Assembly: GCA_903894755.1 (NCBI GenBank)
Contig: CAITRH010000317.1
Coordinates: forward strand, 1-13,484
Origin: an uncultured delta proteobacterium
GTDB lineage: Bacteria; Myxococcota_A; Polyangia; Polyangiales; Polyangiaceae
Length of the DNA: 13,484 bases
Direction: 5' to 3'
The translations under genes and the position numbers were made by a program. The notes under the pieces were generated by a model. It ran no database searches and was not told the origin of the DNA. It saw only the letters and a list, made by a program, of their open reading frames with translations. Below are positions 1-13,290 of this stretch, in pieces. Within the stretch, counting starts at the first letter, position 1. Each line of letters opens with the position of its first letter.

Positions 1-184
1 CGACGGTGGGAGTAGCGTGGGAGCCGACTCCGTGTCAAGGGAACGTGTGCCCGGATGCCAACTCCAACGTCTCTGGGAAGTGCACTGTTGGATGGCTCCT
101 TCAAGCACGAACTTTCATGGCCCCGAGTTTGCTGCAGTCAAGGCATTGGCTAGCGTCTACGGATTGGGAGCCACGGATTGGATT

Positions 185-192
185 AAGGAGGA
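185..192 (+). promoter_or_regulatory. Shine-Dalgarno AAGGAGGA for the 196-684 ORF
   Basis: Perfect anti-SD complement 4 nt upstream of ATG 196. Confidence 0.45.
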
Positions 193-195
193 GCA

Positions 196-684
196 ATGGG
201 CCTGCACTTTATTGGGTTTACTCTGAACACTATGGAGAATCTTGGTGACCGCTTTATGCGAAGTAGACGCGAGCGGCAAAATGCAATTGGACGCATGAAG
301 CAGGAAGTCTACGATTTCCTTCAGCAGTCAGGGCGTAGGCGCGCCCAAGTACACTTGGAGCGTTGTCAGCGCGAAGGAGAGAACCGGCAAGCACGGCGTC
401 TCTTTACCAGTGAGCTCAGGGCGGGGACTCACGCACTTCTATGGCGCTTCAAGTTGTGCCGAAAGGAATTGGCGGTTGCTCGACAGAGGCCGGAATGCCG
501 CACAGTAAGTCAGGCATGGAGAAGAGTCGCTGCGTCTGTTGCGGAAACGCCCTGCGAAGTTCCTGCTATCCAAGAAACTGCCACGCCTGCGGTAAACATC
601 ACGGTACAAAGTTTTGCCATGCATGCGGCGGTGCTGGAGTTCATGGGGGAAACTCTGGTCCTGATAGGAGATACCGAGCAATGA
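196..684 (+). CDS. Hypothetical Arg-rich small protein (162 aa), translationally coupled to the downstream Get3/ArsA-like ATPase
   Basis: ORF in track. A strong Shine-Dalgarno AAGGAGGA (185-192) lies just upstream of ATG 196. Its TGA (682-684) overlaps the downstream ATG 681 as ATGA. No recognisable family motifs, and GC3 is modest (about 54%). Confidence 0.4.
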   Translation: MGLHFIGFTLNTMENLGDRFMRSRRERQNAIGRMKQEVYDFLQQSGRRRAQVHLERCQREGENRQARRLFTSELRAGTHALLWRFKLCRKELAVARQRPECRTVSQAWRRVAASVAETPCEVPAIQETATPAVNITVQSFAMHAAVLEFMGETLVLIGDTEQ

Positions 685-2600
685 TCGCTTCCAGACCCAG
701 CTTTCTGACCCGCCGTGACCTAAGGCTCCTTTTGGTTGGAGGAAAGGGAGGCGTGGGAAAGACAACTTGTGCAACATCCACCGCGATTTACCTTGCCCGG
801 CGTGGGCGATCGAGCAAGTTCTTACTGGTTTCAACCGACCCCGCCCACTCCGTGGCCGACAGTCTAGGAGCAACCACCCCTCCCGCCAATCTCGAGGTTC
901 TGGAGCTCGATGCGGCCCAACGTTTGGAGGACTTCAAACGGGAACACGGCGACAAGTTCAAGACAATCGCCGAGCGCGGGACCTTCTTGGATAAGGACGA
1001 TGTGGGCCAATTCCTGGACCGCTCTCTTCCAGGGATGGACGAATTGATGGCGTTTCTGGAGATCTCCAAACGCGTCGAAAGCAAAGCCTACCGATGTGTG
1101 GTGGTAGATACGGCTCCAACAGGTCACACACTGCGTCTTCTTGCGATGCCCGTTCTTTTGCGCAAGTGGCTTGGAGCGCTCGATGTTCTCTTGGCCAAGC
1201 ATCGGTATATGAAGAGCATCTTTTCCAGAAGCCCCCAACCCGATGAGATCGACACGTTTCTGACAGGCATGTTGGCCTCGGTGAAGAAGATGCAACGGCT
1301 TCTGCGCGATCCCAAGCGAGCGGTCTTTGTGCCGGTGATGCTCGCGGAGATGCTGAGCATTGACGAGACCAGCATGCTCCTTCGTGAGCTTGCACACAAG
1401 AAAGTGCCTGTATCCGATATCATTGTCAATCGCCTCTACCCTGCCAGCGACTGTCCGGTGTGCTCGGACATCCATGCGCGCCAGTTCCAAGAGCTCAAAC
1501 TATGTCTTCCTCAATTGAGCCAGTACGTCGTTTGGGCAGCTCCGCTCTATCCCGAGGAGGTGCAGGGGGTCACTTCGCTCAATACCTTCTGGAAAGATGT
1601 GGTGCGGGTCACAGCCGCAACTTCGGCTCCGTCTGGTGCGCTGGCCGACCTCCGTCCTCTTGTGGAATTCGCTCCCGAGCTCCCCTCTAAAGAAATCCAA
1701 CTTGTTCTTTTTGCAGGCAAAGGTGGGGTTGGAAAGACCACCCTCGCGTGCGCCACCGCTTTGCGCCTGGCCCAGGACCTATCGGAAAGGAGCGTTTTCC
1801 TCTTTTCAACCGATCCCGCCCACTCGCTATCGGCGTGCTGGGATAGGCATATAGGGTCACAGCCTACGTCCCTCACGCGCAGGCTTAGCGCGATGGAGAT
1901 TGACGCTCAAGCCGAGTTCAAAGAGCTGCGAAACGCATATGAAAAGGAACTAGCTCATTTCATCAAGTCGCTCTTGGGGAAAGTGGACCTCAAGTTCGAC
2001 CGAGAGGTGATGGAGAGAATTATGGATCTCTCCCCTCCCGGAATCGATGAAATTATGGCCCTCACCCTCGTCATGGACCTGCTCTCGGCAAAGAAATACG
2101 ATGTGTTTGTGTTGGACTGCGCTCCAACAGGGCATCTCATTCGCCTTCTGGAGCTTCCTCAGCTTATCGATGATTGGCTCAAGACCTTTTTTGGCCTCTT
2201 TGCAAAGTATGGACGCATCTTCAGACTTCCAAAGATCTTCCGTCGCATGACCCAAATATCCGCGCAGATCCAACAGTTGCGTAAGCTCTTCGCCGACCCG
2301 TCCCGCTCCACCATCTATGGCGTAAGCATCCTTACCGAGATGAGCTTTGAAGAAACCAAGGACCTCGTGGGCTCGGCAAAGCGACTCAACATTAGTTTGC
2401 CTGTGATCTTTCACAACCTTGCCACAGCCCCCTCCTCTTGCTCGTTGTGCAGTGCGCTCGTGCAACGAGAATCGAAACTTCGAAGTAAGTTTCTGGAGAC
2501 CTTCCCGTCCACTGCCCAGCCTCTCGTTTACCGAAGAGGCGAGCCGCGTGGACTGACCAACCTCGAAGCACTTGGTCAGGTGCTGTACCAAGAGCGGTGA
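681..2600 (+). CDS. Two-domain ArsA/Get3(TRC40)-family anion-transporting/targeting ATPase with a CXXC in each half
   Basis: Two P-loops (LLVGGKGGVGKTT and VLFAGKGGVGKTT), each followed by STDPAHS. Two DTAPTGH signature motifs (VVDTAPTGHTLRLL and VLDCAPTGHLIRLL). Get3-type CXXC after each half: CPVC at 1452-1463 and CSLC at 2439-2450. Start 681 is preferred because of SD AGGAGA (666-671) and the ATGA overlap with the upstream ORF. The track ORF begins at 441 with a Cys-rich extension. Confidence 0.85.
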   Translation: MIASRPSFLTRRDLRLLLVGGKGGVGKTTCATSTAIYLARRGRSSKFLLVSTDPAHSVADSLGATTPPANLEVLELDAAQRLEDFKREHGDKFKTIAERGTFLDKDDVGQFLDRSLPGMDELMAFLEISKRVESKAYRCVVVDTAPTGHTLRLLAMPVLLRKWLGALDVLLAKHRYMKSIFSRSPQPDEIDTFLTGMLASVKKMQRLLRDPKRAVFVPVMLAEMLSIDETSMLLRELAHKKVPVSDIIVNRLYPASDCPVCSDIHARQFQELKLCLPQLSQYVVWAAPLYPEEVQGVTSLNTFWKDVVRVTAATSAPSGALADLRPLVEFAPELPSKEIQLVLFAGKGGVGKTTLACATALRLAQDLSERSVFLFSTDPAHSLSACWDRHIGSQPTSLTRRLSAMEIDAQAEFKELRNAYEKELAHFIKSLLGKVDLKFDREVMERIMDLSPPGIDEIMALTLVMDLLSAKKYDVFVLDCAPTGHLIRLLELPQLIDDWLKTFFGLFAKYGRIFRLPKIFRRMTQISAQIQQLRKLFADPSRSTIYGVSILTEMSFEETKDLVGSAKRLNISLPVIFHNLATAPSSCSLCSALVQRESKLRSKFLETFPSTAQPLVYRRGEPRGLTNLEALGQVLYQER

Positions 2601-2685
2601 AGTTTTCTCCTACACTTCCCAACAAGGCACGCTACGCTACGGGTACATGGCCGCAGACCGCACCGACCGCACCAAGAGGGATCCC

Positions 2686-5196
2686 ATGGACGACCGCACG
2701 ATCAAACGCGACTTGGTTCTTGCCCCCAATGAATACGCCTATATGCAGGATGTCACCAAGGGCGTCATCAAAACGTACACCGGGCCCACCGTCATCAACC
2801 CCACCGCACAAGAACGCGCCGTTGTCTTCAACCAGGAGTCCAAGCGCTTCGACCCCTGTCCGCTCGAAGGGGCCGTGCAACTCTCGGCCATCGCTCCTGA
2901 AGGCTACTACATCATCCTCAAGAACCCCGCAGTCAAAGGGGACCGTCCCGCCACAGGCGGCGTGTATGCCACCCCAGACCTGGACATCGGCAAGAAGATC
3001 AACATCACCGGCCCTTGCATCTTTGCCCTCTGGCCGGGACAGATCTTCAAGCTCGTTCAAGGCCATCATCTGCGCTCGAACCAGTACTTGTTGGTCCGCG
3101 TCTACAATGAGGAAGAGGCGCGCAAAAACTGGGGCAAAGCCATCATCAAACCCGCATCGCCCGATACCTCCGCAGAAAGCTACGTCATCAACGCCCCCCC
3201 CTCGGACCTGAGCGTTGGCAAGCTCTTTATCATCAAAGGAACCGACGTCTCCTTCTATATCCCTCCCACCGGCGTTGGCGTTGTGCCCGACGAGCAGCGG
3301 TTGTATGTCCGTGACGCGCTCACCCTCGAACGCCTCGAATATTGCATCCTGGTCGAGCAGAACGGCAAAAAACGCTACGAACGCGGTCCACAGGTCGTGT
3401 TCCCCCAACCTACAGAGTCCTTCATCGTTCGCGACGCTCAACGTAAGTTCCGAGCGCTGGAGCTCAACGAAATCCAAGGACTCCACATCAAAGTGATCGC
3501 CCCCTACGAAGAGGCTGGACGCACCTTCAAAGAGGGAGACGAGATCTTTATCACTGGAAAAGAAACTGCAATCTACTTCCCCCGCGAGGAACACTCGTTG
3601 GTCCGCTACGATGGACGAGACAAACACTTCGCTGTCGCCGTACCAGCTGGGGAAGCGCGCTACGTCATGAACCGCAAGGCCGGCGACATCCGCATGATCC
3701 GCGGGCCTGCCATGTTGCTCCCCAACCCTGTGGAAGAAGTCATTGTCCGCCGTATCCTGTCGGACAAAGAATGCTCTACCTGGTACCCAGGCAACGACGA
3801 GGCCCTGGCCTACAATCGAAGCCTTCGTCAGCTCGCCGTGGTCACCCCCACCACCAGGTCTGGAGTGGTCTCCGAGGGGGACGTGGAGCGCAGTCGAAAG
3901 CGGGATGCCAAGGGCCATCATCAGGCGGGTCCAGTGACCATGGAGGCCAGTTTCGTCTCTCGTGACAGTACAGCCATGATGGGGGATGTCGTCGAGCGCG
4001 GTTCGAACTTCACCCAGCCGCGGACCCTTGTGTTCAACACCAAGTTTGAGGGCGTCCCCAACCTGTGCATCTGGGTCGGCTATGCAATGATGGTCGTGGA
4101 CAAGAAGGGGAGCCGAAGGGTCGAGCAGGGGCCCAAGAGCATTCTCCTCGAATACGATGAGGCTTTGGAAATCATCCACCTTTCCAAGGGACTTCCCAAG
4201 TCGTCGCAACAGCGCATACAAACCGTGTTTCTGCGTGTGCTCAACAACAAAGTGAGCGATATCTGTGAGGTCGAGACCGTCGACCACGTCCGCGTGAAGC
4301 TCACCTACTCGCTCCGCGTCAGCTTCGATGGAGACCCAAACCGTTGGTTCGAGGTCGAGAACTATGTGCAGTACCTGTGCGATCATATCCGCTCGGTGCT
4401 CAAGGGGACCACAAAGAGAACCACCATCGAGGCCTTCTACGCCAGCGCAGTCGACATCGTACGCGATACCATCCTAGGCAAGGCGCAAGACAAAGGGGAA
4501 CGTCCCGGTATGCGCTTCGCTGAGAACGGCATGCATGTGACCGATGTCGAGCTGCTTGATGTTGCCATTGGTGACGAGCGCATCGCAACGCTTCTCAACC
4601 AAGCGCAACACGAGGTGGTGCAGAGCAACATTGGGCTTCTTCGGGCAGGACGGAACCTAGAGGTCGTCAAGAAACAGGAGGACCTCCAACGGCAGGAGGC
4701 GGAGGCAAAGGCAATCACCACCAAGAGGAAAGCCGAGCTCGAGATGGACGACATTGGCGCGAAGCTTCAAGTGGAGCTCACGCGCATTGGAGCCGAGATC
4801 AAGCAACAGGAGCTCGCCGAGGGGGCCGCAAAGGCAAGGAACCTCGCGCTCGACGTGGATCACCAAGCAAAACTGTACCGAGCGCGTCTCACCGAAGGCC
4901 AACGTCAGGAAATGGAGACCAAGGATCAAACGTTGCGTCTCGAGGGGCTACGTGTCGAGGCGGAGACCATGGTGGAGCGGTTCGAGGCTGCGCAGGGGGG
5001 CTTCTCCGAGGCGTTATTGGCGCTCTCCAACCAGGAGACGTTGGTAAAGGTGGCCCAAGCCATGAGTGTACAGAGCTTCATTGGCGGCAAGACCCTAACC
5101 GACGTGATCGACAAGATCTTTGCCAATACGCCGCTGCAGGCAGTGGTCGAGACGGTCAAGGCCAAAGCAAGCCTTCCCGAGAAGCCTGCGAAGTAG
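2686..5196 (+). CDS. Major vault protein (MVP) homologue, full length (837 aa): N-terminal MVP repeats, shoulder, cap-helix coiled coil and cap-ring
   Basis: The N-terminus IKRDLVLAPNEYAYMQDVTKG..GP..ERVVF repeats the pattern of MVP repeat 1 (IIRIPPYHYIHVLDQN..GP..ERVLF), recurring at about a 50-55 aa period. The shoulder region (VETVDHVRVKLTYSLRVSF, VENYVQYLCDHIRSVLKGTTKRTTIEAFY) aligns with vertebrate MVP ([50 protein letters not shown]). A long Glu/Ala/Lys/Arg coiled coil and a terminal LTDVIDKIFAN follow, similar to MVP's ITDGSTPINLFNTA. GC3 is high. Start ATG 2686 has SD AAGAGGG (2674-2680); alternative in-frame starts are 2572 and 2647. Confidence 0.8.
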   Translation: MDDRTIKRDLVLAPNEYAYMQDVTKGVIKTYTGPTVINPTAQERAVVFNQESKRFDPCPLEGAVQLSAIAPEGYYIILKNPAVKGDRPATGGVYATPDLDIGKKINITGPCIFALWPGQIFKLVQGHHLRSNQYLLVRVYNEEEARKNWGKAIIKPASPDTSAESYVINAPPSDLSVGKLFIIKGTDVSFYIPPTGVGVVPDEQRLYVRDALTLERLEYCILVEQNGKKRYERGPQVVFPQPTESFIVRDAQRKFRALELNEIQGLHIKVIAPYEEAGRTFKEGDEIFITGKETAIYFPREEHSLVRYDGRDKHFAVAVPAGEARYVMNRKAGDIRMIRGPAMLLPNPVEEVIVRRILSDKECSTWYPGNDEALAYNRSLRQLAVVTPTTRSGVVSEGDVERSRKRDAKGHHQAGPVTMEASFVSRDSTAMMGDVVERGSNFTQPRTLVFNTKFEGVPNLCIWVGYAMMVVDKKGSRRVEQGPKSILLEYDEALEIIHLSKGLPKSSQQRIQTVFLRVLNNKVSDICEVETVDHVRVKLTYSLRVSFDGDPNRWFEVENYVQYLCDHIRSVLKGTTKRTTIEAFYASAVDIVRDTILGKAQDKGERPGMRFAENGMHVTDVELLDVAIGDERIATLLNQAQHEVVQSNIGLLRAGRNLEVVKKQEDLQRQEAEAKAITTKRKAELEMDDIGAKLQVELTRIGAEIKQQELAEGAAKARNLALDVDHQAKLYRARLTEGQRQEMETKDQTLRLEGLRVEAETMVERFEAAQGGFSEALLALSNQETLVKVAQAMSVQSFIGGKTLTDVIDKIFANTPLQAVVETVKAKASLPEKPAK

Positions 5197-5219
5197 ACGG
5201 CCCGATAGCCCGGCATCCC

Positions 5220-6389
5220 ATGCGCTTTGTCCATACAAGCGATTGGCACGCAGGACGGGTCTGGCGTGGGCTGTCGCGGCTGGCTGAACTGGAACGCGTT
5301 CTCGACCACCTTGCGCAGTACCTGGAGCGCGAACGCGTCGATCTTCTGCTGGTCACGGGTGACGTCTTCGACAACGGTGCACCGTCCGCTGAAGCCGAAC
5401 GCGTTGTGTTCCAGTTCTTCTGTCGCGTTGGCCGCGCTCGCATACCCAGCGTGGTCATTGCTGGCAATCACGACAGTCCATCACGCATGGAGGCTTGGGG
5501 AGCACTCGCCGAGCTCGTGTCGGTCCATGCCATCGCTCGTCCGCGCGGGCCTGACCAGGGGGGAGTCCTCGAGCTCACCACGAGGTCCAATGAAAAAGTT
5601 CTCGTAGCGGCTCTCCCCTTTGCCAGCGCGGGGGCTTTTGTCTCCGCAACAGCGCTTGCCGAGGACGATACACGGGCTCGTCGGTCCTATTGCATGGGGC
5701 TTGCCCAGCTGTCGCAGCAGTTGAGCGCGCGGTTTCGGGACGACGCTGTCAACTTGTTTCTTGCCCATACCCATCTGGATGGCGCTCGGCTTAGCGAATC
5801 CGAGCGTGAAGTGCATGTGACAGACGCGTGGACTGCATTGCCTTCCGCCTTTCCAGCATCCGCAACCTACGTAGCGCTAGGACACCTGCACCGTCCCCAG
5901 CGCATGGACTCGGTGGCCTCACCTGCCTACTACGCAGGGTCGCCGATGCAACTTGACTTCGGCGAGGTGGGGGATGTCAAGTCGTTTGTCGTGGTGGAAG
6001 CCGCTGCAGGGAAGGCCCCGCTCATCGAGCTTGTACGCTACGAAGGGGCGCGGGGGCTTCGCGACGTGCGTGCAACGCTTTCGGAGCTCGAGGGGTTGGC
6101 TCCAACGTTGGGCGACTTGTGGCTTCGAGTGCGGGTTCCTCTGGAACGTCGCGACCCTGATCTTTCTGCAAAGGTCCGGCTGCTTCTCCCCAATGCCATT
6201 GTCATTCAAGACGAGCTTGCTCCGGGGGGGGCTACAAAGATAGAAGACGCTGCGCAGCCTCCGTCGGGTCTGGTAGCAGGGGGAGGATTTGCGGCGTATT
6301 TTCTTGAGGCCCATGGGTGTCCCGCAGACCAGGAGCTGCTGGCCGAGTTCGAGGCGTTGAGGCTCCGTACGCTGGCGGAGGAGCCATGA
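5220..6389 (+). CDS. sbcD: SbcD (Mre11-family) dsDNA exonuclease/hairpin endonuclease subunit
   Basis: All calcineurin-like phosphoesterase motifs are intact: HTSDWHAG, VTGDVFDNG, IAGNHDSP, FLAHTHLDGA, ALGHLHRP. Starts 23 bp after the MVP stop. Its stop overlaps the sbcC start (ATGA at 6386-6389). Confidence 0.9.
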   Translation: MRFVHTSDWHAGRVWRGLSRLAELERVLDHLAQYLERERVDLLLVTGDVFDNGAPSAEAERVVFQFFCRVGRARIPSVVIAGNHDSPSRMEAWGALAELVSVHAIARPRGPDQGGVLELTTRSNEKVLVAALPFASAGAFVSATALAEDDTRARRSYCMGLAQLSQQLSARFRDDAVNLFLAHTHLDGARLSESEREVHVTDAWTALPSAFPASATYVALGHLHRPQRMDSVASPAYYAGSPMQLDFGEVGDVKSFVVVEAAAGKAPLIELVRYEGARGLRDVRATLSELEGLAPTLGDLWLRVRVPLERRDPDLSAKVRLLLPNAIVIQDELAPGGATKIEDAAQPPSGLVAGGGFAAYFLEAHGCPADQELLAEFEALRLRTLAEEP

Positions 6390-9300
6390 GACCCCTCGAA
6401 ATTGCCTTGTCTGGATTCACCTGCTTCAAGCAAGAGACGGTCATTTCACTGCGCGACCTGGACGTGTTCACCATTGCAGGAACCACGGGAGCAGGCAAGA
6501 CGAGCCTCCTCGACGCCATGTTGTTCGCGCTCTTCGGCCGTGTCCCCAGGGTGGGACGTAGTTGTGCGGACCTGATCTCCTCGGGACTTGACCGCATGTC
6601 CGTGCGTCTTGCGTTCCGCATGGGCGACAAAGAGTTTACAGTGTCGCGTATCCTGCGACGTGGTCGCGCTGCAATCGCGCAGCTCGACGACGCCAACGGC
6701 GCTGTCGCAAACGGCGTGCGCGAGGTTGACGACGCTATCGAGCGTCTTGTTGGCATGCCTTTCGACACCTTTGTGCAGGCCGCAGTGCTCCCCCAAGGGG
6801 AGTTCGCCCGATTCCTGAAGAGCACACAGTCCAACAGGACAAAAATCCTTCGCGACCTTCTCCGAGTCGAGGTCTACGAGCGGATGCGATTGGTTGCAGT
6901 CGCGTCGGAGCAGGCGCTCGCCAAGACCCTTACGTTTACCGACAATTTGCTCGCCACGGACTTCGCCGGGGCCACCCCGGAAGCCATGACCGCGCTGTCT
7001 CAGGAGTTCTCCCGTTGCATCGAGGGGAATGAGGCGCGGGCGGAACGTTCCCTCGAGGTGCGTTCCAAAGCATCCGAGCTGCGTACACTGTTTGAGAAGG
7101 GGGTGACCCTCGACAAGCTGCAAGCCGAGCGTGTGGCTCTCGAGGCCGAGCGCTCCCTGGCCGAGCGGGCCGCAACCGAGTGCGATGCTGCCGAACGGGC
7201 TCTGCGTGTGGAGCCGCTCCTGCGAGCGGTGGATGAAGCGGCCGTGGCTTTTGCCCTTCGTGAACAAGGTCGTCTCGCTAGGGGGGCGGCAGTAGGGCAA
7301 GCCGAGGTGATCCTTGGAAAGTGCCAGGCCGACTTCGAGCAAGCCAGCCATGCTGCTGAGGCTCTCCCGGGGCTTCGGGCTCGTTGCAGCGCCCTCGATG
7401 CTGTAATTGGTGTACTCGCTCCGTTGGCTTCCGAGCGTCGATCGCTCGAAGGTCTCAGGAAACGGCAGGGAAAACTGGTCGAGGAACTGGACCTACTGAG
7501 CCGAGAGCTTGCAGTGCTCGATGCACGTTGCCGTTCCGCGGAGCAGGCGTCGGCAGTCGCTCGAGCGCGGGTCACGGGGTGCGGCTACGATCCTCAGAGC
7601 ACGGAGCGTCTCGAGGCGCTTCGCCCCGCAGTGGAGCGTCTCGGGGAGCTTCGACGTGAGCTGTCCGGGGTCCAGACGGAAGCTGCAAGGGGAGAAGCCT
7701 CCGTGACCTCCAGGACTGGGGCAGTAGCCGAGGCAAGACATGGGTTGGAGGCCGCGCTGTTGGCGCATCAGGAAGCTGAAAAGGGGGCCGCACGGGCGGT
7801 TTCCGAGGTCGACGCTGGGACCCGTGTGGATCACGCGAGGGCGCTTGCAACGAGCCTGGTGGTTGGTCAGTCCTGTCCGGTCTGTGCGCAAACAGTCCTT
7901 GCGGTTCCAACGGTGCCCGAGGCTGTCGACAAAGGGGCGCTTGTCGAGCGTCGTCACCGAGCTGTCGCAGAGGAGCGGAAGGCGTTCGAGCTGCGTTTGA
8001 AGAAGCAGGCTGCACTTGGCGAGGCCGAAAGGCGGCTTGCGGAGGCGAAGGAGACGACTGCGGCGCTAGGCGGACATCGTGTGACCCTAGAGGCCGGACT
8101 GCGGGCCGCAGAAGCGAGCCTCGAGGAGCTTTCGCGTGGCCTTGTTTCTGCTGCTACGGGGACTGTAGAAGCGCGGGTTCTTGCTGCGCTCACCCGTGCC
8201 ATGGCGATGCGACGGGCTTATGACGAAGCGGTTGCAGAGCAACGTCGCGCGGACGACTCCTTGGCTCAGGGGCGCAGCGCCGTGGATGGCAGGAAGCACG
8301 GGGTGGCTGCCCTCGAGGCCCAGCGGAGCACGTTGGATGCACAGGCAGCGGCGGTCCAGCAGACCGTTGCCAGTTGGGAGCAGCAACTGCGGGCCGTGAC
8401 AGAGCATCCGGATCCTCGGCGTGAGCGACGGGAGCTTGGGGAGCGGATCGAGGGGCTTGAGGCGGCGTTGCATCAGGCGCGTAGCTCCTCTGAGCCCGCG
8501 CAGGCTGCTGCGAGCCATGCGAGGAGCCTCCTCGAGCTTGCGCTGAAGGAGGCGCTGGTTGCAGAGGCCAACGTCATCGAGGCGAGGCGAGCGGGCGAGG
8601 CTGCTGCGCTGGCGCATGGCTTTCTTTCGCTGGACCAGACGCGCGATGCTGTGAGAACTCCTACGGACTTGCAGCGACTTAGGACCACAGTGTCGTCGTT
8701 TGAACGTCGCGCCCATGCGCTGGACGGTCAGATGTCCGGGCTCGCTCTCGAGCTCGGGGACCGTCGGGTTGATGCTGCAACGCTCAGGGAGGTGGAGTCC
8801 GAGCTGGCGGAGCTGTTGGCGCTGCACGACAGCGAGAGGAAGCGCGAAGGGGGGCTTGCTGCGGAGCTTTTGGCGATGGCGCGTCGAGTCGATCGGGCAG
8901 CGGCGCTTCGTGCCGAGCACGCGATCCAGACGCGGTCGCGCGGCATATTGCATCAATTGGCTGACAACCTAGGGACCACGAAGTTCCAGCAGTACATGTT
9001 GCGGGAGACGCTGTCGGACCTGGTGGCGCGCGCGAGCACGCGGCTTTACCGGTTGTCGACGGAGCGTTACACACTGGAGCTGCGCGATGACGACTTCTTC
9101 GTAGTGGATCACGACAATGCCGAGGAGCGTCGTCCAGCGACCACGTTGAGCGGGGGCGAGACGTTTCTTGCGTCCTTGGCGCTGGCACTTGAGTTGTCCG
9201 AGCAGGTGCAGCGAGCGGCGGGGGCGATACGGCTCGACAGTTTGTTTATCGATGAGGGGTTTGCGAGTCTGGATCACGAGTTCCTCGATGCAGCGGCGGA

Positions 9301-9436
9301 GGCGATCGAGTCCTTGGAGCTTGGGGGGCGGATGGTGGGGGTGGTGACGCATTTGACTGCGCTTACGGAGCGTTTACCGGCGCGTCTATTGGTTACGAAG
9401 CATGCGGACGGCTCGCGGGTCACCAGGCAGCTTTGA
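6386..9436 (+). CDS. sbcC: SbcC (Rad50-family) SMC-like ATPase subunit
   Basis: Walker A GTTGAGKTSLLDAM. Q-loop LPQGEF. Long Ala/Arg/Glu coiled coil with a central CPVC zinc hook (7874-7885). Signature LSGGETFLASLALAL, Walker B/D-loop LFIDEGFASLD and H-loop VGVVTH. The preferred start ATG 6386 gives the N-terminus MRPLEIALSGF, typical of SbcC, with GGCGGAGGAG SD upstream. The track ORF starts at 6317 inside sbcD. Confidence 0.9.
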   Translation: MRPLEIALSGFTCFKQETVISLRDLDVFTIAGTTGAGKTSLLDAMLFALFGRVPRVGRSCADLISSGLDRMSVRLAFRMGDKEFTVSRILRRGRAAIAQLDDANGAVANGVREVDDAIERLVGMPFDTFVQAAVLPQGEFARFLKSTQSNRTKILRDLLRVEVYERMRLVAVASEQALAKTLTFTDNLLATDFAGATPEAMTALSQEFSRCIEGNEARAERSLEVRSKASELRTLFEKGVTLDKLQAERVALEAERSLAERAATECDAAERALRVEPLLRAVDEAAVAFALREQGRLARGAAVGQAEVILGKCQADFEQASHAAEALPGLRARCSALDAVIGVLAPLASERRSLEGLRKRQGKLVEELDLLSRELAVLDARCRSAEQASAVARARVTGCGYDPQSTERLEALRPAVERLGELRRELSGVQTEAARGEASVTSRTGAVAEARHGLEAALLAHQEAEKGAARAVSEVDAGTRVDHARALATSLVVGQSCPVCAQTVLAVPTVPEAVDKGALVERRHRAVAEERKAFELRLKKQAALGEAERRLAEAKETTAALGGHRVTLEAGLRAAEASLEELSRGLVSAATGTVEARVLAALTRAMAMRRAYDEAVAEQRRADDSLAQGRSAVDGRKHGVAALEAQRSTLDAQAAAVQQTVASWEQQLRAVTEHPDPRRERRELGERIEGLEAALHQARSSSEPAQAAASHARSLLELALKEALVAEANVIEARRAGEAAALAHGFLSLDQTRDAVRTPTDLQRLRTTVSSFERRAHALDGQMSGLALELGDRRVDAATLREVESELAELLALHDSERKREGGLAAELLAMARRVDRAAALRAEHAIQTRSRGILHQLADNLGTTKFQQYMLRETLSDLVARASTRLYRLSTERYTLELRDDDFFVVDHDNAEERRPATTLSGGETFLASLALALELSEQVQRAAGAIRLDSLFIDEGFASLDHEFLDAAAEAIESLELGGRMVGVVTHLTALTERLPARLLVTKHADGSRVTRQL

Positions 9437-9491: not shown

Positions 9492-11426
9492 TTAGCGGGC
9501 CGTTAATGGAAGGGGCTCTTCGATCTTGATCTCGCGAATGGCTTCGCGGAAACGTACCTCGAGCTCGGTCAGCTTCATGTTGTTTTCCACCGATTGCTTC
9601 GTGAGCTCGTCGAGACGCGCCACGATCTCAGTGAGACGCGCAGTCAAACGGCGCCGGAGCGCATCGGCGTCGCGGTTCTTCTCAATGGCCTTGAGGTTGC
9701 GACGGGTCTCTTCAGAGGCGGTGCTGAGATCGTGCTTCTCCCGCTCCAACTTGAGACGCACTTCCCGCTTCTGAACAATCTCGTTGCGCAACGCCCAGGC
9801 CGCCGTCAGCTTGGCCACCGTAGCCGTGGGCGCGCGAGGATCGGCGAGGTACGCTTTGACCGCGTTGTTGGCAATTGGAGAAAACCAGTCTTCCCAACGT
9901 CGCACTGTCGCGCGCTCGTCGACAATGAGCTCGCCCGTCGTGTTCGGCGCCACCACCGTAGGGACCAGTGCGGTGCCTGTCCCCACGTTGTCTTCTGTCT
10001 CCTTGGGCGCTTCGAAAAGACGGGTGTCGCTCTGACGCGGATGTTTCACCAGCAGCTTGATGGGACGCTCTGTGCCGTTTCGAAGGCGATAGGTGGTCCT
10101 CAAGACTGCGTCGCGTTCGATCCAAAGCTGGCCGTTCTCGATCTTTGCCACCCGCTCGCCGGTTTCATCCGACTTTTGCTGATGGTCGACAGCGATGGCG
10201 CGCTCGAGTGCAAAGGGGACCGTCGCCGTTGCGCCCGCAGGGAGCGGGTCGACCATGCCTTGTCCTAGGAAAGACCCGTCCTCGAACACCGCAATGGGAC
10301 CGCGTTCGAGCATGCCTGCAGTGGCGTTGCGAAACCGTGCAACGCGGAACGGGTGGCTGCGGGAGTCGGGCACTCCACCGTCCGGCGCATAGAGGAAATT
10401 GGCCTCGCCAGGGACTTTCCGAGAAAGCATCATCACCATGGTGGCGCTCTGGTCCGGGATCGTCAGCGGCACTGGAAGATCGTAGCGGGTCGTTCCCCCT
10501 TCGACGGCCACGGCAGCAAGGGCGCGCACATCGCGAGGACCGGACGGGACAATGCGTGCGGACGGCGCGGGAGGCGGAGGAGGAGGAGGAGGAGCAGAAG
10601 GAAACATCATCCGAGGGGCAGGCACGCGAGCGGCTCTTCCCATGCCACCTCGTGTCCTGCCGCTAGGGGCTTCGGCGGCGGACTTTGGGCTGTCTTCTTC
10701 GTCGCTGTCGCGTGCCACCGCGGCGGGACTTGGCGCGGGCTCGGCAGGCGGTTCTTGACGAAGCGAGGTTTCGGAACGCGGGACCACGGCCAAGACCTCC
10801 CCCAAGTCGGTGATCACGGGACGTACTGGGACTACAGGCACGCCCAGTTGCGCCTCGAAGGCCAGCGGGGCACCAGCTACGAGCGACAACCGAACATTTT
10901 TCCAGTCCTCTCCAGAGAGATTTTGGACAATGCCCCAGGCCTGGAGGTCGGCTTCCCCCGTGCGATGCACGACCAGTCGATACGAGGGGCGCCAGACAGG
11001 GCATTCGGCGACGTAGCCGACCTGTAGGTCATGTTTCTTGCCGTCTAGAGACAGCACTATGGTCTGTAGATCGCTCTTAGGTTTGGACTCCTTGTCTTTG
11101 TCTTTGTCGTCGTCGTCAGGTTTCCTAGGACGCGGGGCTTCTTCAGGCTTGAGGGGGAATGCGGCGGAGCGCACCGAGCTTCCGCCCTGTTCCATGACGG
11201 CGAGGGTGGCAAGGAAATCGCCGACTTGTTTGCCACGCATGCGAAAGTGGACTTCGTCGGCTTCGACCTGTCCGCCGCGTTCGAAGTAGGCGATACCGTT
11301 TCGATAGATGACTACTCTTTTGAGAGGAAGATTGCTTTCGACGATGGGGCCTCGACCGCAACCCATCAAAAAGAGTCCACCGAGCAGCAGCGCTGCCCCA
11401 TTATGCTTCGTTGACCACGTACGCAT
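9492..11426 (-). CDS. Putative secreted lipoprotein, possibly DUF4140/DUF4139 (TIGR02231-like) family, with a C-terminal coiled coil and low-complexity inserts
   Basis: 644-aa ORF with an N-terminal signal peptide and lipobox-like LFLMGC. Segments resembling the DUF4140 N-terminus (RVVIYRNGIAYFERGGQV) and the DUF4139 core (TGEADLQAWGIVQNLSGEDWKNVRLSL; RGPIAVFEDGSFLGQGMV) are recalled from memory only. Acidic DDDDKDKDKE and poly-Pro PPPPPPPPAP tracts are present. The C-terminal 100 aa are predicted coiled coil. Confidence 0.55.
   Translation of the reverse strand: MRTWSTKHNGAALLLGGLFLMGCGRGPIVESNLPLKRVVIYRNGIAYFERGGQVEADEVHFRMRGKQVGDFLATLAVMEQGGSSVRSAAFPLKPEEAPRPRKPDDDDKDKDKESKPKSDLQTIVLSLDGKKHDLQVGYVAECPVWRPSYRLVVHRTGEADLQAWGIVQNLSGEDWKNVRLSLVAGAPLAFEAQLGVPVVPVRPVITDLGEVLAVVPRSETSLRQEPPAEPAPSPAAVARDSDEEDSPKSAAEAPSGRTRGGMGRAARVPAPRMMFPSAPPPPPPPPAPSARIVPSGPRDVRALAAVAVEGGTTRYDLPVPLTIPDQSATMVMMLSRKVPGEANFLYAPDGGVPDSRSHPFRVARFRNATAGMLERGPIAVFEDGSFLGQGMVDPLPAGATATVPFALERAIAVDHQQKSDETGERVAKIENGQLWIERDAVLRTTYRLRNGTERPIKLLVKHPRQSDTRLFEAPKETEDNVGTGTALVPTVVAPNTTGELIVDERATVRRWEDWFSPIANNAVKAYLADPRAPTATVAKLTAAWALRNEIVQKREVRLKLEREKHDLSTASEETRRNLKAIEKNRDADALRRRLTARLTEIVARLDELTKQSVENNMKLTELEVRFREAIREIKIEEPLPLTAR
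10570..10602. repeat. (GGA)n / (GGN)n trinucleotide microsatellite inside the lipoprotein CDS; encodes poly-Pro on the minus strand
   Basis: ggaggcggaggaggaggaggaggagcagaagga read directly. Confidence 0.8.
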
Positions 11427-11467
11427 CGAGCACCTCCGGATGCGGCGAGCATACGACCTCGCCCTGA

Positions 11468-11575
11468 GCAGCGTCGAGTACCGAACGGTGGAAACGCCCT
11501 TGTTGCGCGGTTCGGACCCGGCTCGGACCTGCGGTTTTCAAGTTTGGTTTGGTTTAGCGTGCGCATGTGGCCGGG
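11468..11575. repeat. Copy A of an imperfect direct duplication of the MCE gene promoter and 5' end, upstream of the tandem array
   Basis: gcagcgtcgag-taccgaacggtggaaacgcccttgttgcgcgg ... tagcgtgcgcatgtggccggg is about 80% identical to 11752-11826 (gcggcgttgagagtaccgaccggcggaaactcccttgtcgcgtcc ... tagcgtgcggatgtggcggcc). Copy A carries an extra 35-bp internal segment. Confidence 0.5.
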
Positions 11576-11594
11576 AGACGCGACGGGCGGACAG

Positions 11595-11722
11595 ACCCGC
11601 AGCACTTCCGAACGCACCCGCAGCACTTCCGGACGCACCCGCAGCACTTCCGGACGCACCCGCAGCACTTCCGGACGCACCCGCAGCACTTGCCGGACAG
11701 ACCCGCAGCACTTCTCGGGTGC
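11595..11722. repeat. 21-bp tandem repeat array (about 6 units, consensus ACCCGCAGCACTTCCGGACGC) in a divergent intergenic region
   Basis: Units at 11595, 11616, 11637, 11658 (four near-perfect), 11679 (22 bp, 1-nt insertion) and 11701 (degenerate). Each unit contains the palindromic TCCGGA. The array is bracketed by CGGACAG variants. Confidence 0.85.
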
Positions 11723-11751
11723 TCCCCCGGTGCGCTTCGCCATCATCTGGC

Positions 11752-11826
11752 GCGGCGTTGAGAGTACCGACCGGCGGAAACTCCCTTGTCGCGTCCGATC
11801 GCTGCTAGCGTGCGGATGTGGCGGCC
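11752..11826. repeat. Copy B of the imperfect direct duplication; includes the GTG start of the MCE gene
   Basis: See copy A. Spans the putative promoter region and the first codons of the 11818 ORF. Confidence 0.5.
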
Positions 11827-13290
11827 AAGGTCACCCATGCGGCAAAAGTAGGGCTCTTCGTGGTCCTTTCCGGAAGTGCGCTCTACGGCATCTACCGCAC
11901 GGTGAGCCGTGAGGTCGGCACCTCGTCCAGCTACACGGTCCACGGCTACGTTAAAGACGCGACCGGGCTCGCCAGCCACTCGAGGGTCACCATCGCCGGT
12001 ATCCCCGTCGGCTCCATCGACGGGATCCGTCTCGAACGCGGCCTGGCACGCATCGATGTGCGCATGCGGTCCGATACTCCCCTCTACACCAACGCGACCA
12101 TCGGCAAGCGGGCCGCGTCGCTCCTCGGAGAGAACGTCATTGTCCTGACCCCGGGCACCCCCGACACGGCCGCACTCAAGGACGGCGACGAGATCCACAC
12201 GGTCGTCGAAGAGACCTCCATGAGCCAAATCATGGAGGAGGTGAAGGAAATCGCTGACCGGGTCAAAGATGTCGCCACCCAGCTTGCCAAGTCTGTCGGC
12301 ACGGAAACCGGCGGCCAGAACATCCGGCTCATCTTGCAGAACCTGGCCGAAGCCACCGACGCCCTCAACAAGACGATCAACGAAAATAGGATCTACATCA
12401 ACACGGCGCTCAAGAACGTTGCCAGCATCACCACCCATGCGGACCCGCAGATCGCGCGAATCCTCGACAACGTGCGCGTGGTCACGGAAGACGTACGCGG
12501 GCTCACGGCCTCGGCGGGGGGCGGACGGCAATCCGGGGAGCTACGCGAAACCGTCGAGCGTATCAACCGTGCCACCAAGAGCTTGGAAAGTGCGTTAGGT
12601 CACGTCGACCGCGTTGTCGCGCGGGTGGACCGAGGCGAGGGGACCCTGGGACGACTTTCTAAGGATGACGCCTTGATCAACGAGGTCCAGGGGGCGGCCG
12701 AGGGGGTCGGCGAATTCGTCGGCGGGATTCAGCGGCTCCAGACGGTGGTGGGCCTACGCAGCGACTACAATTTCCTGGCCAACACGATCAAGAGCTACGT
12801 CGAGGTGCGTCTACAGCCACGGGAGGACAAGTATTACCTTATCGAGCTAATCAACGATCCAAGGGGTAAGACGAGTTTCTCTCAGGTTGACGTCGACACG
12901 ACCAATCCGCGCGATCCGGCGCACTACCGGACCATCATGACGACGACCACTGACGCGTTCCGCTTTTCGCTGCAGTTTGCGCGGCGCTTGGGGCCGTTTA
13001 CGGGACGGTTTGGGATCAAGGAGTCGACCGGGGGCATCGGGCTCGACATCCATCTGTTTGGCAATCGTCTCGAGGTGGTGCAGGACATCTTTGGGTTTGC
13101 CGAGGAGGTCCAGCCGCGTTACCGGATTTACTTTGGCTATGAGTTTATCAAGAGGTTGTGGCTTCTCGGAGGAGTGGACCACCTGTTTCTTGGAAACCGT
13201 CGGGACTACTTCCTGGGGCTCCAACTCCGGTTTAACGATGAAGATTTGAAGACTATCCTCCCCTTTGTGCCGACCGGAGCGGCGAAGTAG
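11818..13290 (+). CDS. MCE/MlaD-family protein (single N-terminal TM helix, MCE domain, long helical C-terminal region)
   Basis: GTG start. TM segment VGLFVVLSGSALYGIY, then the MCE-domain pattern YTVHGYVKDATGLASHSRVTIAGIPVGSIDGIRL..ARIDVRM..PLYTNATIGKRAASLLGENVIVLTPG, then about 300 aa of mainly helical sequence. Stop TAG 13288-13290. Confidence 0.8.
   Translation: MAAKVTHAAKVGLFVVLSGSALYGIYRTVSREVGTSSSYTVHGYVKDATGLASHSRVTIAGIPVGSIDGIRLERGLARIDVRMRSDTPLYTNATIGKRAASLLGENVIVLTPGTPDTAALKDGDEIHTVVEETSMSQIMEEVKEIADRVKDVATQLAKSVGTETGGQNIRLILQNLAEATDALNKTINENRIYINTALKNVASITTHADPQIARILDNVRVVTEDVRGLTASAGGGRQSGELRETVERINRATKSLESALGHVDRVVARVDRGEGTLGRLSKDDALINEVQGAAEGVGEFVGGIQRLQTVVGLRSDYNFLANTIKSYVEVRLQPREDKYYLIELINDPRGKTSFSQVDVDTTNPRDPAHYRTIMTTTTDAFRFSLQFARRLGPFTGRFGIKESTGGIGLDIHLFGNRLEVVQDIFGFAEEVQPRYRIYFGYEFIKRLWLLGGVDHLFLGNRRDYFLGLQLRFNDEDLKTILPFVPTGAAK

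Follow-up and report, generated by a model that had tools for sequence, protein, structure and literature searches.

A full-length homologue of the major vault protein beside a gas-vesicle-type Get3-like ATPase gene in a Myxococcota contig

The eukaryotic major vault protein (MVP) self-assembles into a half-shell of 39-fold symmetry and a barrel of 78 copies. For the bacterial homologue that is the subject of this study, the structure was predicted as a monomer. This homologue is encoded by an open reading frame (ORF) at positions 2686..5196 on the + strand of a contig of 13,484 nucleotides (nt) from an uncultured member of the Polyangiaceae (CAITRH010000317.1 in assembly GCA_903894755.1). The whole contig was analysed and is referred to below as the window; the ORF lies directly downstream of a gene for a Get3-like ATPase. 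Bacterial homologues of MVP have been described before, namely in Plesiocystis pacifica, Corallococcus, Microscilla, Saprospira, Flexibacter and Herpetosiphon, and in silico these were found to fold and to dock laterally in the manner of MVP (Daly et al. 2013, PMC3762200). A further in silico description of bacterial homologues is available (Sokolskyi 2019, bioRxiv 10.1101/872010), and the homologues have been extended to phages (Santos et al. 2023, 10.1101/2023.11.10.566534). As for the ATPase, two-domain ArsA homologues (clusters 4 and 6) have been linked to gas-vesicle (gvp) operons, with one exception in the form of a Myxococcus xanthus homologue that has no gvp neighbours (Castillo and Saier 2010, PMC2963123). 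A preliminary description of the window had interpreted the two adjacent genes as a functional vault-like locus, and had considered both a bacterial vault particle and a link between MVP and Get3-like ATPases to be new. Indeed, the literature searched contained no experimental demonstration of a vault particle from bacteria. However, the claim of novelty was overstated, because bacterial MVP homologues had already been published in 2013, 2019 and 2023, and the association of ArsA with gvp genes in 2010.

Our analyses support the view that the ORF, which encodes 836 amino acids (aa) followed by a stop codon, represents a full-length bacterial member of the MVP family and not a fragment. The Pfam model MVP_shoulder (PF11978) matched residues 520-630 over nearly its whole length, with 87.8 bits against a cut-off of 25 (E 7e-25), and the Pfam model Vault_3 matched residues 474-516, the last repeat, with 36.3 bits against a cut-off of 28.8 (E 6e-9). 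A phmmer search against all PDB sequences returned major vault proteins only (E 6.5e-14, residues 467-760 of the query on residues 467-769 of MVP). When a profile of 63 relatives was compared with the PDB, positions 464-794 aligned with MVP 466-828 (E 1.5e-22), a stretch that takes in the MVP cap helix, and a weak colinear match was observed between positions 217-347 and MVP 278-409. The Pfam models Vault (PF01505) and Vault_4 did not match the window protein, and they were matched in only 2 and 1, respectively, of 8 relatives. Pairwise hhalign comparisons of seven hand-cut N-terminal segments gave a weak internal-repeat signal (best E 5e-4, probability 13.6%), which was not used as evidence. 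In the region of residues 631-766, E, A, L, R and Q are abundant, and no hydrophobic or transmembrane segment was detected in the protein (maximum Kyte-Doolittle hydropathy over 19 residues, KD19, of 1.10).

For the structural comparison, an AlphaFold2 (AF2) model was used that was based on an alignment of 133 sequences including Bacteroidota homologues, and that had a mean predicted local distance difference test score (pLDDT) of 69. This model superseded an earlier one from 63 Myxococcota sequences (mean pLDDT 57.5), in which only the shoulder and the helix were reliable. In the newer model, the N-terminal domains are beta-rich, the shoulder is of the alpha/beta type and a single helix follows without interruption. 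Along the gene, and always on the + strand, residues 1-519 (2686..4242) correspond to the beta-rich repeat region, residues 520-630 (4243..4575) to the SPFH-like shoulder domain, residues 631-766 (4576..4983) to a single cap-helix-like helix of 136 residues, and residues 767-836 with the stop codon (4984..5196) to a C-terminal tail, which consists of three short helices and contains a family-invariant G800-G801 pair. The pLDDT values ranged from 88 to 97 in the shoulder and from about 65 to 95 in the helix, and were low in the tail and below 70 over much of residues 1-460. In the model, the N-terminal repeats are broken up by an insertion of about 100 residues (about 360-455), which is helical at first and then disordered. 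A Foldseek search against the PDB gave twelve MVP chains as its top matches (E 5.6e-24 to 1.2e-20, with 850-960 aligned columns), followed by SPFH cage proteins at about 1e-6, and the murine MVP R1-R7 fragment (3gf5) was matched separately (E 4e-5).

Together, these matches establish the homology to MVP and the order of the domains. The predicted model and the comparisons also support an end-to-end MVP architecture, with a caveat on the N-terminal repeats. The preliminary description was thus right to regard the ORF as a complete MVP homologue, since PF11978 and Vault_3 scored above their cut-offs, only MVPs were matched among the PDB sequences and the Foldseek alignment ran over the full length. 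The structural comparison that it had proposed also favoured an arrangement of repeats, shoulder and cap helix. Among the individual parts that it had named, the shoulder, the cap helix and the tail could be recognised, the latter with low confidence, whereas the N-terminal repeats were recovered only in part, being seen by Vault_3 but not by PF01505 and modelled with pLDDT values below 70 over much of their length.

Compared to the eukaryotic MVPs of rat, human and rabbit (PDB 4V60, 7PKZ, 9MXV and 9Z4W), the window protein falls into the same length class (836 versus 861-893 aa) and has the same order of parts, consisting of a beta-repeat region, a Vault_3-type last repeat, a shoulder, a very long cap helix and a short tail. 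From about residue 465 onwards the residue numbering of the proteins is nearly colinear, and the Foldseek alignment is full-length. In contrast, the identity in the structural alignment is only 15-18%, the repeats are not seen by PF01505, and the insertion at about 360-455 is a difference from the eukaryotic proteins, as is the cap helix of about 136 residues in the model. Moreover, the 13.5 kb of the window do not encode a recognisable vault partner: the Pfam and NCBIfam scans of the window proteins detected no vPARP or TEP1/TROVE domain, and the Rfam and tRNA scans, in which a vault-RNA-like or Y-RNA-like partner was sought, detected no Rfam family and no tRNA.

A database search yielded more than 5,100 relatives at E≤1e-3, of about 820-860 aa and mostly from metagenome-assembled genomes (MAGs) of Myxococcota and Bacteroidota. 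The best 120 of these relatives are 63-73% identical to the window protein, have lengths of 801-913 aa and belong to Nannocystaceae, Kofleriaceae and other Myxococcota MAGs, the closest full-length relative being 73% identical. Many of the relatives carry the Joint Genome Institute (JGI) label 'major vault protein'. Homologues from Cytophagales/Microscillaceae, including one from Microscilla marina (P0253), are 42-48% identical; those obtained by genome scans fall at 43-46%, and these scans also gave more distant forms. The window protein is another member of the bacterial MVP family that had already been described, and it shares family and Pfam architecture with the proteins of Plesiocystis pacifica (A6FXM1 and A6FXE2), Corallococcus (H8MNI3), Microscilla marina (A1ZGE7), Saprospira (H6L4P8) and Enhygromyxa. 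It differs from them by its lower GC content, which is 0.605 for the whole window versus 0.67-0.75 at the other Myxococcota MVP loci (L001-L024), and by a neighbourhood that was found only on the window contig. This family, of which more than 5,000 sequences were found, is relevant to how the eukaryotic vault originated and to the question whether bacteria build vault-like cages.

Two further observations relate to the diversity of MVP-like genes. Three Polyangiales MAGs (L031, L032 and L033) contain a second, divergent MVP-like family of about 913 aa that is 26-28% identical to the window protein. It has an N-terminal insertion of about 100 residues, its tblastn alignment starts only at residue 467, and all three loci share a downstream gene family. 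In addition, a MAG labelled Candidatus Saccharibacteria contains an MVP-like gene of 939 aa with 35% identity on a contig of 22.6 kb. This is unexpected in a lineage of the candidate phyla radiation with its reduced genomes, and it may reflect a binning error.

To see which genes accompany MVP elsewhere, all eight window proteins were used to search 33 bacterial MVP loci, each taken with flanks of up to 8 kb in both directions, and flanking ORFs were called by the difference between the GC contents of third (GC3) and second (GC2) codon positions. Only MVP itself was found to recur. The Get3-like (ArsA) ATPase, the 162-aa gene that precedes it in the window and the SbcCD genes that follow MVP were absent from all 33 loci, and no gvp proteins were detected near the other MVP genes. 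In the clustering of ORFs, every flanking family was confined to 7 or fewer of the 34 sequences (the 33 loci plus the window). Likewise, when the 104 genes immediately next to MVP were assigned to Pfam families, no family was counted more than 5 times. This census was led by sigma-54 activators and kinases, both common in the genomes concerned, and ArsA_ATPase was not among the 25 most frequent families. Among the relatives detected in genomes, the closest (L022, with 81% identity in its best tblastn segment) is located on a contig that ends within the MVP gene, and in the upstream 8 kb that were examined the MVP gene is preceded by a gene on the opposite strand. The MVP gene behaves as a stand-alone gene, the neighbours of which vary by genome. 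SbcD is a neighbour of the MVP gene and not part of a conserved unit; it is absent from all other MVP loci compared. As the bacterial MVP genes lack conserved neighbours, their function will have to be derived from experiments rather than from genome context.

The ATPase gene occupies positions 681..2600 (+) and encodes 639 aa, which is also the length of the NCBI gene call. The preliminary description had identified its product as a tandem ArsA-fold ATPase with CxxC motifs of the Get3 type, and this was confirmed. Specifically, Pfam ArsA_ATPase (PF02374) matched in two stretches (E 1e-119), and TIGR00345 (GET3_arsA_TRC40) scored 384 bits against a cut-off of 135. The ArsA equivalog models remained below their cut-offs (164.6 versus 650 bits for TIGR04291 and 174 versus 800 for NF041417), and no ars genes were found in the window by the Pfam and NCBIfam scans. 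Deviant Walker A P-loops of the GKGGVGKT type are located at residues 21 and 346. CxxC motifs are present at residues 258 and 587, both of which are invariant in 120 of 120 family members, and the first of them (CPVC, 258-261) aligns with the zinc site of Get3/TRC40, namely CPQC in Schizosaccharomyces pombe Get3 and CKMC in human TRC40. In a search of the PDB, Get3/TRC40 and Chlamydomonas ArsA1 (E 3e-53 to 1e-40) ranked above E. coli ArsA (2.5e-37). The window ATPase is thus closer to Get3/TRC40 than to E. coli ArsA and shares the CxxC motif with the former, but its two halves are fused in tandem whereas Get3/TRC40 is a homodimer, and the context of its family is gas-vesicle biogenesis. We know of no Get1/Get2-type receptor or tail-anchored client for a tandem ATPase of this gas-vesicle type. 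An in-frame extension of the ATPase ORF (441-680, +), rich in Cys and His (CVCCG...CHACGKHHGTKFCHACGG), was considered as a possible zinc-ribbon N-terminus. It was rejected, since the homologues do not cover it (coverage 82-90%), the NCBI call has 639 aa and the stretch coincides, in a different frame, with the 3' half of the gene for the conserved 162-aa protein. The extension is probably not translated.

The ATPase belongs to a clade that is normally embedded in gas-vesicle clusters. Its best 120 homologues are 52-60% identical, about 640-720 aa long and distributed over many phyla. We inspected 89 loci with relatives of the ATPase, 80 of which came from a metagenome scan. gvp genes were present in 88 of them, the sole exception being a contig of 2.4 kb, and an MVP gene was present in none. 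The relatives that were examined individually were located in gas-vesicle clusters in five of five cases. The usual gene order is gvpA, one or more small ORFs, gvpN, one or more small ORFs, gvpF/L, gvpG, ArsA, gvpJ, gvpK and a gvpJ-like gene. Tandem ArsA/Get3 proteins of this family, in which both CxxC motifs are invariant, form a near-universal component of one type of gas-vesicle cluster, where they lie between gvpG and gvpJ/gvpK. The window ATPase resembles the two-domain ArsA proteins of gas-vesicle clusters (Castillo and Saier 2010) in its length of about 640 aa, its tandem fold, its pair of CxxC motifs, the absence of ars genes and its 51-61% identity to members embedded between gvpG and gvpJ/gvpK, but it has no gvpG upstream and no gvpJ or gvpK downstream, and it is the only copy that was seen without gvp neighbours. 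Indeed, tblastn searches of the window with GvpA, F/L, G, J, K and N from two gas-vesicle loci (L034 and L038) gave nothing significant, the best match being the P-loop similarity of GvpN to the ATPase. The possibility that positions 1-195 contain the end of gvpA was rejected, as no match at all was found there. The window ATPase is the most divergent member of its family, being no more than 61% identical to its relatives. It has retained 156 of the 166 near-invariant family positions (94%), with 10 changes compared to a mean of 1.7 in other members, and has lost one conserved cysteine (C566A). As a separate observation, a gene with a Volactin domain (PF25216) is located after gvpJ/gvpK and downstream of the ArsA homologue in two of the gas-vesicle loci (L039 and L040, 9691-10767).

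The small gene at positions 196..684 (+), which encodes 162 aa, has a strong ribosome-binding site (AAGGAGGA) 5 nt ahead of its ATG, and its stop codon overlaps the ATPase start at 681 as ATGA. Its codon signal is weak. The protein has no Pfam or NCBIfam match, and a search of 1.84 billion representatives yielded 23 homologues at E≤1e-3, aligned over residues 1-110. The motif HFxSFTPEAM...RRLFxSELRSGVHAL lies within these conserved N-terminal 110 or so residues. In one homologue (P0328), the gene call also includes a C-terminus of GvpA as a fusion (NCBIfam GvpA, 2e-19), and a short contig (L044) shows the C-terminus of GvpA, a homologue of the 162-aa protein and a GvpN-like AAA+ protein in this order. 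Furthermore, a profile of the family matched same-strand ORFs between gvpA and gvpN in 18 ArsA/gvp loci. Taken together, the fusion, the gene order and the 18 loci place the 162-aa family between gvpA and gvpN, which is the interval that holds gvpC in cyanobacterial clusters. From this evidence, the window gene can be regarded as a divergent member of an unnamed family of small proteins of gas-vesicle clusters, which thereby gains a positional annotation. On another contig, a 90%-identical copy of the gene is present with a gap upstream and an overlapping gene downstream, as in the window.

We consider it probable that the MVP homologue is a native, cytoplasmic gene product of the Myxococcota clade of the bacterial MVP family, and that its gene lies only incidentally beside a stranded or reduced pair of gas-vesicle genes. 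The protein is regarded as cytoplasmic because it lacks a hydrophobic segment. Through the SPFH-type shoulder and the cap helix of 136 residues, copies of the protein would associate laterally to form a closed ring or dome, the wall of which would be lengthened by the N-terminal beta-repeat region. From homology only, we infer that the product would be a large homo-oligomeric cage of a vault-like, half-vault-like or SPFH-like kind. The 162-aa gene and the ATPase gene would be translationally coupled, with both stemming from the gas-vesicle repertoire, and the pair, lacking other gvp genes, could be what was left of a cluster after reduction or rearrangement, or else the terminal part of a cluster that was cut by the contig edge. 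The adjacency of MVP would then be an accident of gene order in this lineage and not the sign of a vault-Get3 system. Several points weigh against this interpretation. The three genes are on the same strand with short gaps and no recognisable terminator, so that co-transcription on this contig is possible. The ATPase is intact, with all its motifs and 94% of the near-invariant positions but without its usual gvp partners, which fits a new role as well as a recent stranding, and the similar layout around the 90%-identical copy indicates that the pair of genes has been maintained in at least two strains. It should also be noted that the window begins 195 nt before the 162-aa gene, so that gvp genes further upstream would be out of view. 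As for the MVP homologue, confidence in the N-terminal half of the model is modest and the N-terminal repeats are the weak point of the assignment, being seen by structure and transitive homology but not by the Pfam Vault model, and cage assembly is suggested by homology.

The preliminary description had proposed the opposite for the two neighbours, and its statements on the layout were accurate. The 85-nt gap between ATPase and MVP (2601..2685, +) contains an SD-like (Shine-Dalgarno-like) AGAGGGA ahead of the MVP ATG, terminator-like and sigma-70-like sites were looked for in this gap and none were seen, and SD sites and ATGA overlaps are present as described. This arrangement would fit a single operon-encoded vault-like system in which the ATPase and the 162-aa protein serve MVP, for instance by acting as a chaperone or assembly factor that was taken over from the biogenesis of the gas-vesicle shell. 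It would also agree with the integrity of the ATPase despite its lost gvp context, with its divergence (at most 61% identity and 10 near-invariant changes versus a mean of 1.7), which might follow a change of client, and with the conservation of the pair in the 90%-identical relative. We nevertheless regard such a system as very improbable, since neither the ATPase nor the 162-aa gene co-occurs with MVP in any of the 33 MVP loci, MVP occurs in none of the 89 ATPase loci, and in L022, the closest MVP relative for which upstream sequence is available, this position is taken by a gene on the opposite strand. Codon usage is also dissimilar between the genes: GC3 is 0.735 and the effective number of codons (Nc) 44 for MVP, compared to 0.636 and 54 for the ATPase and 0.546 and 59 for the 162-aa gene. 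In line with the preliminary description, MVP therefore has a high GC3 and the strongest codon bias among the neighbouring genes. Finally, eukaryotic MVP expressed in E. coli is reported to assemble without any such factor (PMC9778704). There is likewise hardly any prospect that the Get3-like ATPase and its small partner were retained after loss of the gas-vesicle cluster because they now serve the adjacent MVP; if this were true, the chaperone of one bacterial protein shell would have been re-used for another, and a Get3-type ATPase would for the first time be functionally linked to a vault-type cage. Because the conserved-neighbourhood test fails from both the MVP and the ATPase sides (0/33 and 0/89), the functional vault-like locus of the preliminary description could not be upheld, and the outcome regarding an MVP-Get3 link is clearly negative. 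The contig adds a member from a lineage of lower GC content to the MVP family but no new functional clue, because the proposed partner turned out to be a gas-vesicle gene.

Two other explanations concern the MVP homologue itself. The protein could be an SPFH-type dome or ring scaffold, comparable to HflK/C, flotillin or prohibitin and perhaps docked on the inner membrane or another structure, instead of forming a free, closed vault of two halves that serves as a container. We judge this to be unlikely, though less so than a dedicated vault-Get3 system. Unlike the SPFH cage proteins (HflK/C, flotillin, prohibitin, stomatin and erlin), the window protein has no transmembrane or hydrophobic anchor and carries about 520 extra N-terminal residues of repeat domains. 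Moreover, its colinearity over the whole length is far better with MVP than with SPFH proteins (Foldseek E 1e-24 versus 1e-6), and lateral docking of the MVP type was obtained in silico for bacterial homologues (Daly et al. 2013, PMC3762200). The possibility that the contig is a eukaryotic contaminant or was assembled chimerically, or that its MVP gene came from a eukaryote very recently, was raised by the GC content, which is about 0.56-0.58 over positions 1-5000 and 0.62-0.67 beyond, with a step from about 0.56 to about 0.64 near position 5000, and by the window average of 0.605, well under the range of the other Myxococcota MVP loci. This explanation is refuted and retains practically no probability. 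The flanking SbcCD, MlaD/Mce and MuiA-like genes are plainly bacterial by their family matches, the MVP ORF is uninterrupted, and SD sites and ATGA overlaps are present, in agreement with the bacterial origin asserted in the preliminary description. In addition, the nearest relatives are bacterial (63-73% identity among thousands of proteins, compared to 15-18% for eukaryotic MVPs by Foldseek), and the junction of MVP, SbcD and SbcC was found with 100% identity in an independent sample.

The gene for the SbcD nuclease (5220..6389, +; TIGR00619, 175 bits) starts 23 nt 3' of the MVP stop codon. It is followed by the SbcC ATPase gene, which was recognised by AAA_23 and SbcC_Walker_B matches and probably extends over 6386..9436 (+). 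The mechanically called SbcC ORF begins at a GTG at 6317. The alternative ATG at 6386 is probably the actual start, because it forms a second ATGA overlap, here with the SbcD stop, is preceded by GGAGGAG and agrees with the start call in an independent contig (L043). Further downstream are a DUF4139/MuiA-family gene on the - strand (9492-11426), an ORF of 166 aa without any family match (11308-11808) that overlaps the start of this minus-strand gene, and an MlaD/Mce-family gene (11818-13290, +). The independent contig, which measures 1,878 nt and comes from a different sample (JGI sample 3300045716), is 100% identical to positions 5098-6970 of the window. This identity confirms the MVP-SbcD-SbcC junction independently, and it indicates that the same strain was present in more than one sample.

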